A stretch of 10,895 nt of DNA from a candidate division WOR-3 bacterium (GCA_039802605.1 JBDRWW010000019.1:1-10895), one strand, 5' to 3'; shown: positions 6,710-10,895, numbered from the stretch's first letter. Notes: generated from the sequence alone by a model not told the origin. Translations and numbers: made by a program.

Positions 6710-6881
6710 ACCTTTTTATCGCCTCCATCTCTGCATTTAGTTTAATTATCGTCTCTTCAAGTTGGTTAATCTTTTCGGTTAACTTTTGAAGTATGTGTTC
6801 ATGTCTCCATATTAAATAAATGGCCACCACAATGGGGAAACCAACTTGTTGAATGGCATTAATGATAACATTCACATCCAT
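6681..6881 (-). CDS. YvrJ-family, holin-like small membrane protein (66 aa)
   Basis: IQQVGFPIVVAIYLIWRHEHILQKL followed by a coiled coil matches the YvrJ pattern. GGAG SD. Confidence 0.7.
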   Translation of the reverse strand: MDVNVIINAIQQVGFPIVVAIYLIWRHEHILQKLTEKINQLEETIIKLNAEMEAIKRYVDNDNRQD

Positions 6882-7299
6882 GCTTCTCCTCCTTCTCTAA
6901 GTAGTATAACAGTAGAAACGCGAGAATGGAGCGTATAACATTTTCATATCGGTCGTAAAGGATTTCAAGTATGGATAATATTTCCGTCGGGTCGTATCCG
7001 GCTTCATACATGTATGCCACTGCAAGGAGGTCGGGGACAAACTCGTTTTGTCTCATCCCCAGCTTATGCATGTACTTATGCATGTATAGGTGTCCTAACT
7101 CGTGTAAGGTAATAAACAGTTGTGTATATTCATCAACATTTTGGGGTAAATATATCACAGCCGGAAGGGTGGTTTTAGATGAAAATTCTATATGTCCCTT
7201 TGTGTTTGTTGCAAATTTTATTTTTATGTTTGGAAGCGTCTTTTTTACAAATTGCCGAAAATCCGTAAGAAAAAGGCTTAATATTTCCCTCTTCTTCAT
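6859..7299 (-). CDS. ImmA/IrrE-like zinc metallopeptidase (146 aa)
   Basis: LFITLHELGH (HExxH) followed by NEFVPDLLA, which supplies the third-ligand Glu. Confidence 0.75.
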   Translation of the reverse strand: MKKREILSLFLTDFRQFVKKTLPNIKIKFATNTKGHIEFSSKTTLPAVIYLPQNVDEYTQLFITLHELGHLYMHKYMHKLGMRQNEFVPDLLAVAYMYEAGYDPTEILSILEILYDRYENVIRSILAFLLLYYLEKEEKHGCECYH

Positions 7300-7769
7300 A
7301 ACTTCAACACGCCAAATTTAAAGAGTAAGAAGACAACGAAGGCTATAAACAAAACAACAAGCAGGACAACAAGCAGGGTTGTATAGGCTTTTACCAAATC
7401 TGTAATCTGTTCAAGGAAGCCTTTTTTGGGTTTCTTTTCCTCCATGATTTCCCTTTTTATCCTTTGGCAACTTTCGGAAGTGGTATAAATATCTTGGAAT
7501 TTCCCGCCTTCAACCGAAAGGTTAGTACGTACCATTTTGTGGTGGTCGGGCTCAACGGTTAAACAGATATAAGGAGCCGTTCTTCGTAAGTCTCGGTATT
7601 CTTTCATTTTATACCAGTTTTGGCCATCCGGTGAATATTCTATGGTGCCGTTTATTTTATAATTTCCGTATTTGTCTCCGAAGATTACTACTATTGAGCG
7701 GGCGGAATGGGGGATTTGTATCTGAGTTTGGAGAGTATCTTTTTTGCCAAAAAATTCTTCTCTTTTCAT
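7296..7769 (-). CDS. Beta-rich protein with a C-terminal TM anchor (157 aa; start re-called to MKREEFF)
   Basis: The ATG at 7769 overlaps the upstream TGA (ATGA). IEYSPDGQNWY beta motif and C-terminal TM helix. Confidence 0.7.
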   Translation of the reverse strand: MKREEFFGKKDTLQTQIQIPHSARSIVVIFGDKYGNYKINGTIEYSPDGQNWYKMKEYRDLRRTAPYICLTVEPDHHKMVRTNLSVEGGKFQDIYTTSESCQRIKREIMEEKKPKKGFLEQITDLVKAYTTLLVVLLVVLFIAFVVFLLFKFGVLKL

Positions 7770-8200
7770 CTTGCCAAGGCTATCATGAGAGCTACCACCA
7801 AGAACAGAAGCATGAACCCTATAATTGCTATCCAAACCCATCCGGGTATATCGCTTCCGGTCTGAACTACAACGGGCTGTGAAGGCTGTGAAGGCTGCGA
7901 AGGGGGTTTTTCACCAAATAGGGCTTCGCCCACTTTCTTTACAACATCCCACATATTAAAATGTTCTATACGGTCAAAAAACTCGTCAAATTCATATACC
8001 GGTATGTATTTTTGAAGTTTGGGGTATTTATCTACCAAATAAACCAACGCCCCAACAAGTTCCTCTTTGCTTGCCGGCTTCCTTGCAAGTTTTTCGCCCG
8101 TCTCTCTGATAAAGAGTTCCAATAATTGCCTTACTTTCTCCTCATCCAGTTCTTTCAACAACTCCAAAACCCTCTCGTGTTGTGTCTTCTCTGCTGCCAT
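7766..8200 (-). CDS. Helical protein with a PSQ linker and C-terminal TM anchor (144 aa)
   Basis: GGAGAGG SD, PSQPSQPSQP linker, TM segment WVWIAIIGFMLLFLVVALMIAL. Confidence 0.75.
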   Translation of the reverse strand: MAAEKTQHERVLELLKELDEEKVRQLLELFIRETGEKLARKPASKEELVGALVYLVDKYPKLQKYIPVYEFDEFFDRIEHFNMWDVVKKVGEALFGEKPPSQPSQPSQPVVVQTGSDIPGWVWIAIIGFMLLFLVVALMIALAR

Positions 8201-8224
8201 GTTTTTACCTCTCCTTATTCTTTA

Positions 8225-9082
8225 TTAAAACTCCTCTTCTTCCTCGTATTCGTCAAAAGAGGCAGCAGGACCCATATGTCTTATAGGGCTGGGCTTGGGT
8301 GTAGGCTTGGGTTTTATCGGTTTCTCTCCACCTAAATGCAACCCCGGAGAACTATACCCCGATATATATAACACCAATGTAAAGGTTCGTACCTGCCCAG
8401 CAGGAACAGGCGGGAAGTTCAAAAGGCTTATGCCTGTATTTCCATCCAACACCAACCCCCTGGCCACGGTGAGAGGGGTGTCTTTGAAGTTATCTTCCTT
8501 TGCGTATTGACCTAGTGAGAAAGTCTCAAGGTCTTGCCTGTTTCCCCAAATTCCGTAAAGTTCGTATCTCACATTTATAGCGTGGAATTCCGCTAACGTC
8601 ATTCCACCGTCCTTTATAAACCTGATGGCCTCTACCCTTGCCGACTGCCTCAACACTATATCCGAAAGGTACTTAGCGTCTGCCACCCGTGTGCCGTTTA
8701 GGGTTATGGTTATATTGGCACTTGGGCTAATATTCACAAACGGGGCAGGGGCGAAGAGACCCTGTATAATTGGGGTCATAGGTGTTGTTCCCCCTGAATT
8801 GTCTACGGTTATCACAAGCGTAGCGCTATCTGGGGCATATGATGGTTTTCCCAGAAAAGTGTATTTACTCAACAACTCCTGATTTCTATATGCGATTGGG
8901 TATCTTTGCCTGATTATTCTCCCAAGGTCCCGAAAAGTGGCACCAACAATGTTCTCAAACTCGTCAAACGCCTCTCTGAAAACCCTCTTTATATCCGCAG
9001 GGTCAAAGGTTTCCCTTTCCAAAGCTTCCCTTGCTTTTTGTATTGCCTGCAAAACGCTATATTCCCTATTCTCCTTCTCCAT
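8225..9082 (-). CDS. Candidate major capsid protein (285 aa; helical N-terminus plus beta-sandwich/jelly-roll-like core)
   Basis: Largest soluble protein of the structural operon, with a strong AAGGAGG SD. Beta-rich from about aa 85 to 243, with a Pro-rich and acidic tail. Fold inferred by eye only. Confidence 0.5.
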   Translation of the reverse strand: MEKENREYSVLQAIQKAREALERETFDPADIKRVFREAFDEFENIVGATFRDLGRIIRQRYPIAYRNQELLSKYTFLGKPSYAPDSATLVITVDNSGGTTPMTPIIQGLFAPAPFVNISPSANITITLNGTRVADAKYLSDIVLRQSARVEAIRFIKDGGMTLAEFHAINVRYELYGIWGNRQDLETFSLGQYAKEDNFKDTPLTVARGLVLDGNTGISLLNFPPVPAGQVRTFTLVLYISGYSSPGLHLGGEKPIKPKPTPKPSPIRHMGPAASFDEYEEEEEF

Positions 9083-9093
9083 GGTTTACCTCC

Positions 9094-9285
9094 TTATGCC
9101 TTTTTAGGCTCTGTTTTAAATCCCAACATGACCGCGACCACTGACAAAACAAGGAATATAAACACTATATCAGATATGAGTTGGGGTAGATGCTTTCCTA
9201 AAAAGGCCATCCCCAAACCAACTACGATGGCCCCAACCAACGCTATGCCGAAATGTATGTACCGCAACTCAAATTTGTCCTTCAT
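9094..9285 (-). CDS. Small two-TM membrane protein (63 aa)
   Basis: Two hydrophobic helices. First gene after repeat array B. Confidence 0.7.
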   Translation of the reverse strand: MKDKFELRYIHFGIALVGAIVVGLGMAFLGKHLPQLISDIVFIFLVLSVVAVMLGFKTEPKKA

Positions 9286-9294
9286 GGTGCGGGT

Positions 9295-9390
9295 ATTTTG
9301 GGGTTGTTTTATTCCATTATTTACCCAGTTTACCCAGTTTTGCCCGTTTTTCCTATTTTCCAGTTTTGCCTATTTTTCCAGTTTTTCCAA
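9295..9390 (-). promoter_or_regulatory. 9-bp tandem repeat array with a -10-like box (promoter candidate B)
   Basis: TTTACCCAG TTTACCCAG TTTTGCCCG TTTTTCCTA TTTTCCAG TTTTGCCTA TTTTTCCAG TTTTTCCAA at 9320-9390. Minus-strand CAAAAT at 9295-9300. Confidence 0.6.
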
Positions 9391-10596
9391 AACTTGGGCT
9401 ACAAACTTCTCACTTATGATGTTTAGCATTTCCGTATAGCACTCCAATCTCGTGCGATTGTTTGGGTTTGGGTCTTTTTCAATCCTTCGAATCAGGTCTA
9501 ACAAAACATCCGATAAACTTTTTTGTTCCCTTAAACATTTGTATAACAACCGCACAAATATGTCTGTGAATGCTAAAATTTTCCCCTTTCGCCATTTTCG
9601 TGATACATATTTCGCAAGCGGTGAAAATATTTTCTTTTCTGTTCCTCTCCCAAATGAACTTATGTATATGTTATACCCAAGTACTAAAATTTCGCCTCTT
9701 ACATTTGTTATTTTCCATTCTCCTCGTTTTCCTTTCCCCGACGATTTCGTATTCCCGCCCAGAATCATATACGATATGAAACTATCCTCATTATGAAAGC
9801 GAGAAATATCCCAATACAACGCTTTTACGCAGTATGCGTATGCTATGTTTGAGTTAAAAAAATCCCCTAATATCCTCCTTTCGGTTTCTGTTAGTCTGTC
9901 AAGTTCTTCTTCCATTTGTTTCTGGATTTGTTTAATCTCTTTGATTATTACCTTTAAGGGTTGTATTAGGTGTGATATACCCAAATTGTCATATTCTCCC
10001 TTCTCTACTTTCTTTATTAACGCTTCCGAAGTTATCGGCACCTGGTGTGGGTAATAAATGGGTAGTATTTGTCGGAGGGTGTTTATAAATGATGTGCGAG
10101 CCTTGATTAATTTTTTGTATTGTGTATATAGCAAACGGGCTTTATGCATATCCGGGTTGAATTTGTGTATTTTTGCGTTATCCTGTCGGCCATACAAGTG
10201 AAGGTAATAAGCGTCAAAATAATCGTCTTTTGTTTTTCGGGTGTGTATGTAGAAGCGTGCAAACTCCCTTCCGTGTACGGTATATACTTCCTTGGCACCC
10301 AGCATAAGGAAAAGAATGCCATACCTGACGGAATAAGTCCCGGTGTTTTCTATTACCACAGTTTTACCTTTTACTATTTGGCCAAGTTGGTGGAGGTGGT
10401 TATCATGGTCGTATCTTTTCGGGGGTTCAAACTTTTGAACGGGTATTTTCTTTTCTTCTCCGGTTTCGGTGATGATTTTGGCGGTTTGGGGAACTTCTAC
10501 TTTTACCCCTTTCTCTATCCATACTTTAAACCCCTCTTCGGGGTCATAAAACACCAATATGCCGTTGCCTATATCACAGCCTATTACCTTTTGCAT
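9370..10596 (-). CDS. IS110-family (bridge) recombinase, divergent (408 aa)
   Basis: RuvC-like DEDD: D8 (IGCDIG), E83 (VIENTG), D125/D128 (KDDYFDA). Coiled coil RTSFINTLR. Tnp domain DISRF...SY...KSSG with candidate catalytic S286. AAGGAGG SD. Confidence 0.88.
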   Translation of the reverse strand: MQKVIGCDIGNGILVFYDPEEGFKVWIEKGVKVEVPQTAKIITETGEEKKIPVQKFEPPKRYDHDNHLHQLGQIVKGKTVVIENTGTYSVRYGILFLMLGAKEVYTVHGREFARFYIHTRKTKDDYFDAYYLHLYGRQDNAKIHKFNPDMHKARLLYTQYKKLIKARTSFINTLRQILPIYYPHQVPITSEALIKKVEKGEYDNLGISHLIQPLKVIIKEIKQIQKQMEEELDRLTETERRILGDFFNSNIAYAYCVKALYWDISRFHNEDSFISYMILGGNTKSSGKGKRGEWKITNVRGEILVLGYNIYISSFGRGTEKKIFSPLAKYVSRKWRKGKILAFTDIFVRLLYKCLREQKSLSDVLLDLIRRIEKDPNPNNRTRLECYTEMLNIISEKFVAQVLEKLEK

Positions 10597-10624
10597 GGTT
10601 CTACCTCCTTTTTGTTTTACCCCT

Positions 10625-10779
10625 ACCCCAGTAGGCGGAAATAGTCTCTTCTCCCTTTCGGGAAATATATATTTCTCCCTACTGGGGTTTTTTAAATAGC
10701 GGTAGGGGAGGTCGGAATAATGTTCAACTCCCCACTTATGTGGGCGGAATTATAGCCTCCTCCCCCGTCCCCTACCGCT
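10625..10779 (-). ncRNA. Bridge-RNA-like ncRNA: two stem-loops, each with a two-sided internal guide loop
   Basis: 12-bp stem 10698-10709/10768-10779 with apical CCCAC/GTGGG. 11-bp stem 10625-10635/10678-10688 with apical CCC-GAAA-GGG on the minus strand. Four GGGAG-N10-TTCC(G/C) units. Lies immediately upstream of the IS110 gene. Confidence 0.82.
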
Positions 10780-10895
10780 TGCATTCTACTCTTGTTTAAA
10801 TAGTTTTTTAAGCCGGATAGTTGGTATGGGTATGCGGGGTGGGTTGTTTTTGGGGTGTGGGTTTTCGGGTGTGTAAAGGATAATCCAGCCATCGG
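10769..10895. repeat. Terminal direct repeat, copy 2
   Basis: Identical to bases 1-127. Confidence 0.97.

Follow-up and report, generated by a model that had tools for sequence, protein, structure and literature searches.

A two-hairpin RNA ahead of a recombinase gene

The DNA analysed here, called the window, is a stretch of 10,895 nucleotides from a candidate division WOR-3 bacterium. Toward its end a gene for a 408-aa protein, P0001, is read on the minus strand, and its 5′ leader contains the region of interest (minus-strand 10625-10779), placed between a promoter-like site and the Shine–Dalgarno sequence and ATG of the gene (Table 1). On the plus strand this region holds four modules of the form (C/G)GGAA-N10-CTCCC, at 10636-10655, 10660-10679, 10713-10732 and 10745-10764, all of which read GGGAG-N10-UUCC on the minus strand; the four guide modules with the same flanks and spacing that the initial annotation described are thus confirmed at these coordinates. 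Counted over both strands, the 1.65-Mb genome contains GGGAG-N10-TTCC 22 times. Four of these 22 occurrences fall within the same 130 nt, the remaining 18 are dispersed over the genome, and no further GGGAG-N10-UUCC module was found elsewhere in the window. Moreover, a scan of 272 genomes of the phylum for two modules 4-24 nt apart matched this genome only, both matches being hairpins A and B described below, and a reversed control pattern gave 2 matches over all 272 genomes. Chance is no explanation for the module cluster at 10636-10764. A three-module pattern was also followed in metagenome contigs, with at least 118 stretches returned; the 118 loci gave no tblastn protein match, and the 7 stretches inspected were short tandem repeats with a constant ‘N10’, so these candidates were set aside as unrelated.

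When folded, the 204-nt leader (10800-10597, minus strand) formed two separate hairpins at −78.6 kcal/mol (z = −6.6, with 0 of 200 shuffles as stable), and the inverted repeats of the hairpins were also recovered independently (I2, I3). Two independent GC-rich hairpins joined by an AT-rich linker, as proposed earlier, are therefore borne out by the fold. In each hairpin, the GGGAG ahead of one guide pairs with the UUCC behind the other guide (G.U, A-U, G-C, G-C). The flanks are thus no separate boxes, since their mutual pairing closes each loop on both sides, and the ‘four identical modules’ are two pseudo-two-fold-symmetric 10+10 loops with identical closures. Box C/D sRNAs carry a box C (RUGAUGA) and a box D (CUGA) that form K-turns. 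Neither UGAUGA nor CUGA is present in the 155-nt RNA and Rfam gave no C/D-box match, so a box C/D sRNA was rejected; over the whole window, Rfam returned a tRNA and two chance-level matches only, and no family for the 155-nt RNA.

A consensus scan found three sigma-70-like sites in the region, with 4.2 expected, and the site listed in Table 1 is only a plausible promoter of the RNA. From this site, transcription would start at the base of hairpin A or ∼4-8 nt ahead of it. A 103-aa ORF (18-329, minus strand), with a winged-helix-like stretch recognized by eye, has its end inside the same promoter-like site.

Table 1. Positions of the RNA elements, the recombinase gene and the candidate donor site, counted from the first nucleotide of the window
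Feature	Position	Strand	Description and basis
Promoter-like site, sigma-70 type (TTAAAA-17-TAGAAT)	10783..10811	-	Consensus scan, 9/12 matches
Hairpin A, putative target-binding loop	10698..10779	-	Outer stem, 10+10 internal loop, inner stem with AUAA loop; fold
g1, GAGGCUAUAA	10750..10759	-	5′ strand of loop A; putative left target guide, positions 2-10 expected to pair
g2, UUGAACAUUA	10718..10727	-	3′ strand of loop A; putative right target guide
Linker, UAUUUAAAA	10689..10697	-	Single-stranded, A/U-rich, joins hairpins A and B; sequence and fold
Hairpin B, putative donor-binding loop	10625..10688	-	Outer stem, 10+10 internal loop, inner stem with GAAA loop; fold
g3, AAAUAUAUAU	10665..10674	-	5′ strand of loop B; putative left donor guide
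g4, AAGAGACUAU	10641..10650	-	3′ strand of loop B; putative right donor guide
Leader remainder	10597..10624	-	Shine–Dalgarno AAGGAGG ahead of ATG; read from sequence
P0001, 408-aa IS110-family (bridge) recombinase	9370..10596	-	Pfam DEDD_Tnp_IS110, alignment, profile, AF2 model
Candidate donor (attP-like) site, AATATATAGTCTCT	749..762	+	Best composite g3+g4 match in the element, 17/20

In P0001 itself Pfam detects the IS110 DEDD domain only (PF01548 DEDD_Tnp_IS110, E = 1.2e-09), and PF02371 Transposase_20 was not detected. A full HMMER search of 1.84 billion representatives returned 27 relatives at E <= 0.001, with P0003 (39% identity) as the closest full-length one; DEDD_Tnp_IS110 was present in 23 and Transposase_20 in 18 of the 25 relatives scanned (E <= 0.001). 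A word-based protein search returned the self-match only, a search with the P0001/P0003/P0004 alignment found no close-relative loci in metagenome, genome or viral contigs, and the gene is single-copy in its genome. In a 19-sequence alignment, residues D8, E83, D125, D128 and S286-G287 are invariant, and Ser286 is the putative nucleophile. The profile made from this 19-sequence alignment matched both domains of ISCro4 (9t56, 2.9e-32) and IS621 (8wt6, 2.4e-31), and matched TasR (9mty) more weakly (1.5e-11). The ranking by fold was similar: for the AF2 model (pLDDT 89.8), the ten best Foldseek matches were IS621 and ISCro4 chains, followed by TasR, TasH and Nop5 complexes (TasR 9mty, E = 9.5e-06), with an identity to IS621 and ISCro4 of only ∼15-17% in the structural alignments. 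Judged by alignment and predicted structure, the invariant DEDD and Ser-Gly residues together with the profile and fold rankings identify P0001 as a very divergent serine/DEDD recombinase of the IS110 family, belonging to a rare clade, and not as a Tas nuclease. The earlier association of the RNA with an IS110-like protein is thereby supported by Pfam, profile and fold.

Two features around this gene were noted separately. About seven tandem copies of a 9-nt unit resembling CCAGTTTTG occupy 9316-9389 and extend over the recombinase stop codon; iterons or an array for protein binding are possible readings, and a strain in run X6 has one unit fewer (9 nt left out at 9320). In run X10, a low-depth contig (3.5x) joins 6638 to 9797, which represents a strain without 3158 nt; this deletion covers the genes that follow the recombinase gene as well as the 3′ third of that gene itself.

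Guide behaviour in related loci

Comparative data came from 22 loci of clade members, 20 of them from a species-genome scan (mostly Aquificota MAGs) and 2 (L002 and L003) from the bacterial family of the host. Upstream of the recombinase gene, 13 Aquificota loci have one hairpin of the same 10+10 design. In the RNAalifold consensus of these 13 hairpins, 13 of the 18 consensus pairs show compensatory changes, and the 10+10 loop has a G.U closure on both sides. A covariance model trained on the 13 relatives' hairpins alone was searched against 83.7 kb, and it matched hairpin A of the window at 10701-10776 (21.9 bits, E = 0.0026 for 83.7 kb) and recovered two untrained relatives as well, with one hairpin per relative locus. 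Folding and covariance modelling, which the initial annotation had named as checks, thus give a strong fold here and a covarying homologous hairpin in relatives. Hairpin B was not found by this model of the relatives' target loop; no counterpart of it was detected in the Aquificota relatives, where a loose scan for a second symmetric hairpin gave noise.

The loop strands of the relatives behave as guides. A conserved left-end motif is present in 14 loci, and in 8 of these the 10-11 nt of DNA immediately outside the element are repeated without mismatch in the 5′ loop strand. Over the six variable loop positions, 11 loci gave on average 4.0 matches to their own flank and 1.7 to the flanks of other loci, a value as high as this being reached in 0 of 20000 permutations. 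Loop position 1 never matches the flank, and guides were therefore defined as positions 2-10. The right junction can be predicted from the 3′ loop strand by taking its reverse complement; the predicted sequence was found exactly in L007 and L011 and at 8/9 in L005, and L013 gave no exact match. In the 22 kb searched, ∼0.085 exact 9-mers would be expected. The left and right guide footprints overlap on TTAT. Because the predicted right junctions lie 7.2 kb (L007 with L168) and 8.8 kb (L011 with L169) from the left ends, the Aquificota relatives seem to be cargo-carrying elements. A tblastn search of the relatives' loci with the accessory ORFs of the circle described below gave no match.

Comparisons of closely related copies gave the same picture. 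Between L008 and L022, which are 97% identical, 6 of 9 guide positions differ, compared with 20 of 781 other positions (p = 5.5e-8); between L004 and L005 the figures are 6 of 9 and 184 of 1853 (p = 6.8e-5), and two further pairs gave p = 0.015 and p = 0.2. The initial annotation held that its reading would fail if the guide segments were no more variable than their flanks in homologues; the hypervariability found here goes the other way. Thus a four-module guide RNA in two independent hairpins is supported, and the guide behaviour of the N10 segments is shown in homologues. As a separate observation, the left guide at L008:1404-1412, GGAAAATTA, equals the left flank of L022 (about 1330-1343) in the same MAG and differs from the flank of L008 itself, which suggests that the RNA of one copy acted in trans on another copy.

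These results bear on whether the hairpins might be a mere cis-acting leader that serves translation or stability of the recombinase mRNA, with modules that arose by internal duplication. Their location between a promoter-like site and a Shine–Dalgarno sequence is what such a leader would have. This explanation is nevertheless hardly credible, because in relatives the stems covary and the loop strands are unpaired, hypervariable and matched to flanking DNA, while in the window neither hairpin is followed by a U-run and the minus strand has no terminator-like call in the region. We regard the region 10625-10779 with high confidence as the bridge RNA of an IS110-type recombinase.

The roles of the two loops were approached through the relatives from the family of the host. 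The genome that supplied L002 belongs to the same genus as the host, and the locus contains the CGGCG-N10-GGCCG module four times, spread over two hairpins, one of them 5′ of the gene and the other directly 3′ of the stop codon (2014-2105, plus strand; z = −5.9 for the 3′ hairpin). A hybrid site at L002:140-156 matches exactly over 16 nt: one part of it corresponds to the left guide of the 3′ hairpin, the other to the right guide of the 5′ hairpin, and the two parts share 3 nt. With all four guide combinations allowed, 0 of 1000 shuffles reached its score. Under the IS621 scheme, this site is an LD-core-RT junction, and the 5′ hairpin therefore reads the target and the 3′ hairpin the element end. 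This donor end is found ∼300 nt past the RNA and is read from the opposite strand to that of the gene. No orthologous empty site for the L002 flank was found in 12 family genomes, and a 14/15 match in G064 was rejected as unrelated DNA. The guide endings of hairpin A (..AUAA/..AUUA) are common to the target-type hairpin of L002, and those of hairpin B (..AUAU/..CUAU) to its donor-type hairpin; hence it is reasonably likely that hairpin A serves as target loop and hairpin B as donor loop.

L003 likewise has a second symmetric 10+10 hairpin directly 3′ of its stop codon (about 1310-1230, minus strand), with a weak fold (z = −1.3). In both L002 and L003, the 5′ and 3′ hairpins carry the same flanking motifs, so that the two loops are split around the gene. 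The guide matches in L003 fall outside the canonical strand rule. A near-palindrome, CCGGTATTATACTGG, was noted just upstream of its 5′ hairpin (about 2737-2755, gene-sense strand); guides of both hairpins match it over 8+8 nt, in a strand arrangement against the bridge-RNA rule.

The circle and its candidate sites

Positions 10769-10895 of the window are identical to 1-127, and this exact terminal overlap of 127 nt shows the contig to be a 10,768-bp circle. The overlap takes in the promoter region of the RNA together with 11 nt at the start of hairpin A. The same join, 10768 to 1, is made by a Logan contig of run X1, which may be the source sample; among the contigs of four runs that fall on the window, this circle join in X1 and strain variants were seen. 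The cargo of the circle is virus- or plasmid-like, and phage and plasmid collections gave no match to the cargo DNA or to P0001.

In the mechanism we propose, the region read on the minus strand would be the 5′ leader and bridge RNA of the very divergent IS110-family recombinase, and the N10 segments would be guides, with DNA pairing at positions 2-10. The half-sites would be read as in IS621: the 5′ loop strand would be identical in sequence to one strand of the DNA at the left half-site, and across the right half-site the 3′ loop strand would be complementary to this DNA strand. The two guide footprints would overlap on an A/T core of 3-4 nt. The identical loop closures would hand the recombinase dimer one handle four times. 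Loop B would read a site of the circle itself and loop A a site of the host chromosome, both tentatively named below, and the recombinase would integrate the whole circle at the chromosomal site by serine-mediated strand exchange. As a whole, this explanation (a bridge RNA with the loop roles given above and integration of the whole circle at tentative sites) is one that we hold with good confidence.

For the target, the geometry was fixed by the relatives (guide positions 2-10, overlap 3). The 15-mer predicted by g1 and g2 is AGGCTATAATGTTCA, and other contigs contain one exact match, in the host chromosome at G000 C2:203622-203636. Shuffled 15-mers were present in the chromosome in 702 of 200000 cases, and with all seven registers allowed shuffled guides reached the target score in 3 of 60 trials. 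The match lies within the last 15 or so codons of a 436-aa ORF and recurs with 1-2 mismatches in sister species, where it is conserved because it is coding. For the donor, the candidate at 749-762 falls in the intergenic gap 699-962; on the circle it precedes the RNA by ∼735 nt, an arrangement whose topology L002 shares at its donor end. Its exact 14-mer was present for 50 of 200000 shuffles, with the register (overlap 4, 1 nt off the target register) picked after the match had been seen; with all seven registers allowed, shuffled guides reached a score of 17 or more in 9 of 200 trials. Another half-site match, at 7339-7348, is inside an ORF and was judged a chance match.

No integrated copy or hybrid junction was found in the assembly, where scores of 17-18/20 are at chance level, and the contigs of the four runs showed, among the joints and loose ends listed, no hybrid junction and none near 749-762. 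With these modest statistics and no junction seen, both site assignments are hypotheses, and that the donor at 749-762 and the target at C2:203622-203636 should both be correct is a proposition to which we give somewhat less than even confidence.

The circle also has a second, classical integration module. A tRNA-Gln (1423-1496, minus strand) overlaps the 3′ end of a short tyrosine-integrase-like ORF of 238 aa (1459-2175, minus strand; phrog_1 6e-18, Pfam matches below cut-off), and with this gene of its own the circle may integrate without the IS110 system. Beside it, a 150-aa ORF (963-1415, minus strand) has a chromosomal paralogue: a copy of 975-1415 is 86% identical at G000:C2:40537-40977 and 89% identical in a sister species, and paralogue contigs have loose ends at 976 and 1415 in the runs. 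The motif ATTATCCTTTACAC at 10871-10884 (minus strand) is similar to ATTAT|CTTACAA, the left end conserved in the Aquificota relatives, and the DNA adjacent to it matches none of the four guides.

The same bridge RNA could belong to a compact IS of ∼1.6-1.8 kb, made up of the RNA and the recombinase and carried as a passenger in a circular element that integrates at tRNA-Gln; the donor would then be the joined IS ends instead of 749-762, and the 15-mer in C2 would be a coincidence. Canonical IS110 elements are ∼1.5 kb long in the accessible part of a recent account (bioRxiv 10.64898/2026.08.14.744561), the integrase-like gene at tRNA-Gln and the motif at 10871-10884 would both fit, and the significance of both site matches is modest. 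Against this, no guide match exists beside that motif or in the 84 nt between the recombinase stop codon and the next ORF (single-guide matches beside the gene, at 10780-10895 and 9000-9369, are 6-mers only), and the recombinase gene has one copy in the genome. An integrated small IS would, moreover, leave no contiguous donor-type site, yet one was found, and among relatives L007 and L011 appear to be 7-9 kb and the donor end of L002 lies ∼300 nt past its RNA. We consider a passenger IS improbable and retain mobilization of the whole circle as the preferred reading.

Relation to IS621 and to TIGR arrays

Several features of the IS110 family are present: a DEDD RuvC-like domain, a C-terminal domain with the catalytic serine (by alignment), and an adjacent structured RNA with two loops. 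Pairing of the loops with target and donor over a shared core is seen in the relatives, and in the window the exact 15-nt target-type site and the 14-nt donor-type site, with their modest statistics, are candidates for it. The compact multi-copy organization of a ∼1.5-kb IS, a trait typical of the family and not a mechanistic one, is absent here (one copy, no guide-matching ends near the gene, a 10,768-bp circle).

In the published account of IS621, as far as its accessible text goes, target recognition falls to the first loop and donor recognition to the second, a strand rule and a shared core apply, and the guide length is 8-9 nt (5′ side) or 4-7 nt (3′ side) (Durrant et al. 2024, PMC11208160). 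The likeness to this system (PMC11208160; 8wt6, 8wt9) extends to the DEDD RuvC-like and serine recombinase domains, an ncRNA just upstream of the gene, two internal loops of which the first is the putative target loop and the second the donor loop, 5′ and 3′ loop strands that would pair with opposite DNA strands, and a core that both guides would cover; the guides of the relatives follow the strand and shared-core rules published there. The differences are also clear. Identity is ∼15-17%, and the Pfam C-terminal model misses P0001. Compared with the IS621 RNA as described, both loops here are 10+10 with the same 4-bp helix closing all four sides and equal guides of 9-10 nt, and the core is A/T-rich and 3-4 nt long, whereas that of IS621 is a CT dinucleotide. 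Donor half-sites would here be read on the strand opposite to the gene (inverted donor polarity), the element is a 10.8-kb circle with cargo whereas the IS is 1.5 kb, the association is with elements of 7-11 kb, and in the relatives the two loops may flank the gene. Large cargo-carrying IS110 elements have been described (bioRxiv 10.64898/2026.08.14.744561), and in the accessible part of that source they share with our circle a recombinase with bridge RNA, a size far above 1.5 kb, plasmid-like cargo and circular forms; they belong to canonical lineages with resistance cargo, in contrast to the rare thermophile clade and the putative whole-circle mobilization here.

The second system to be compared is TIGR-Tas. 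A TIGR unit contains two non-overlapping spacers of 8-12 nt, each between two conserved motifs, and it has been stated that bridge RNAs resemble two fused tigRNAs (Faure et al. 2025, PMC12045711, in its accessible text). Each hairpin here resembles a stem-loop TIGR unit as described there (PMC12045711; 9mty), with a palindromic stem, two spacers of ∼10 nt between conserved motifs, a pseudo-two-fold symmetry fit for a protein dimer and a related protein fold. The likeness is architectural and stands at the level of the unit.

One could accordingly read the RNA as a two-unit stem-loop TIGR-like array, in which each hairpin is processed to its own guide and the protein binds or cuts DNA in defence or regulation, with no recombination. 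In favour of this, both hairpins agree with the unit as published, a palindromic stem that holds two spacers of 8-12 nt with conserved motifs on either side (PMC12045711, within the same accessible text), TasR (9mty, E = 9.5e-06) is among the fold matches, and the hairpins are set apart in L002 and L003. The protein argues otherwise: P0001 keeps the IS110 serine domain with its invariant catalytic Ser-Gly, whereas Tas proteins have a Nop-type RNA-binding domain alone or with an HNH or RuvC nuclease, and IS621 and ISCro4 outscore TasR in both sequence profile and fold. There are two units only, compared with TIGR arrays of many units, most often 5-15. Finally, the guides overlap by 3-4 nt (L005, L002 and the candidate sites of the window) and specify insertion junctions, unlike TIGR spacers, which guide cleavage or binding in the published description; in the relatives, guides that overlap on a core and copy element-flank junctions are the signature of insertion. 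By protein, unit number and overlapping guides, membership in TIGR-Tas fails, and we consider such an array very unlikely. With an IS110-type P0001 and TasR ranked lower, the RNA is read as a bridge RNA rather than a TIGR array.

The interpretation of the initial annotation is thus partly supported. Its placement of the RNA between a bridge RNA and a TIGR array did not hold up, given the full IS110 catalytic set (DEDD and Ser-Gly) in the protein, the better match of IS621 and ISCro4 than of TasR, the two units, and the bridge RNA-like overlap of the two guides of each loop on a shared core. For the suggested processing into two separate RNAs, the one hint is the placement of the hairpins in L002 and L003, 5′ and 3′ of the gene. 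The thermostability suggested for the guide RNA is an inference from the hot-spring origin. A literature search by title and abstract, not specific to such RNAs, gave no single-loop or split natural bridge RNA, and the accessible text of a preprint from the Sternberg lab (10.1101/2024.06.21.599552) makes no mention of symmetry, Aquificota or thermophiles.

The kind of RNA-guided DNA recombination is a known one, and what sets this case apart is a bridge RNA of unusually regular and modular form. Bridge recombinases are under development as programmable tools for insertion, excision and inversion, and the RNA described here is short (∼155 nt) and regular, with equal guide lengths and identical closures, and its source is a hot-spring organism. 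Should it be active, reprogramming this scaffold would be easy, and it would offer a natural experiment on whether the two loops can function as separate RNAs. It also gives a concrete, strikingly symmetric example for the published idea of two fused tigRNA-like units. A further suggestion is that an RNA-guided recombinase serves some small thermophile episomes for integration. A broader proposal, which we put forward as a speculation more doubtful than probable, is that a rare IS110-type clade of thermophiles uses modular tigRNA-like hairpins (the same protein-binding closure four times, with loops in tandem or split) for RNA-programmed integration of episome- or virus-like elements of 7-11 kb rather than of a minimal IS. 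If true, this clade would have a natural split or modular bridge RNA, with target guides that turn over very fast between near-identical copies, and would come nearer than any living form so far to the common ancestor proposed for stem-loop TIGR units and bridge RNAs.
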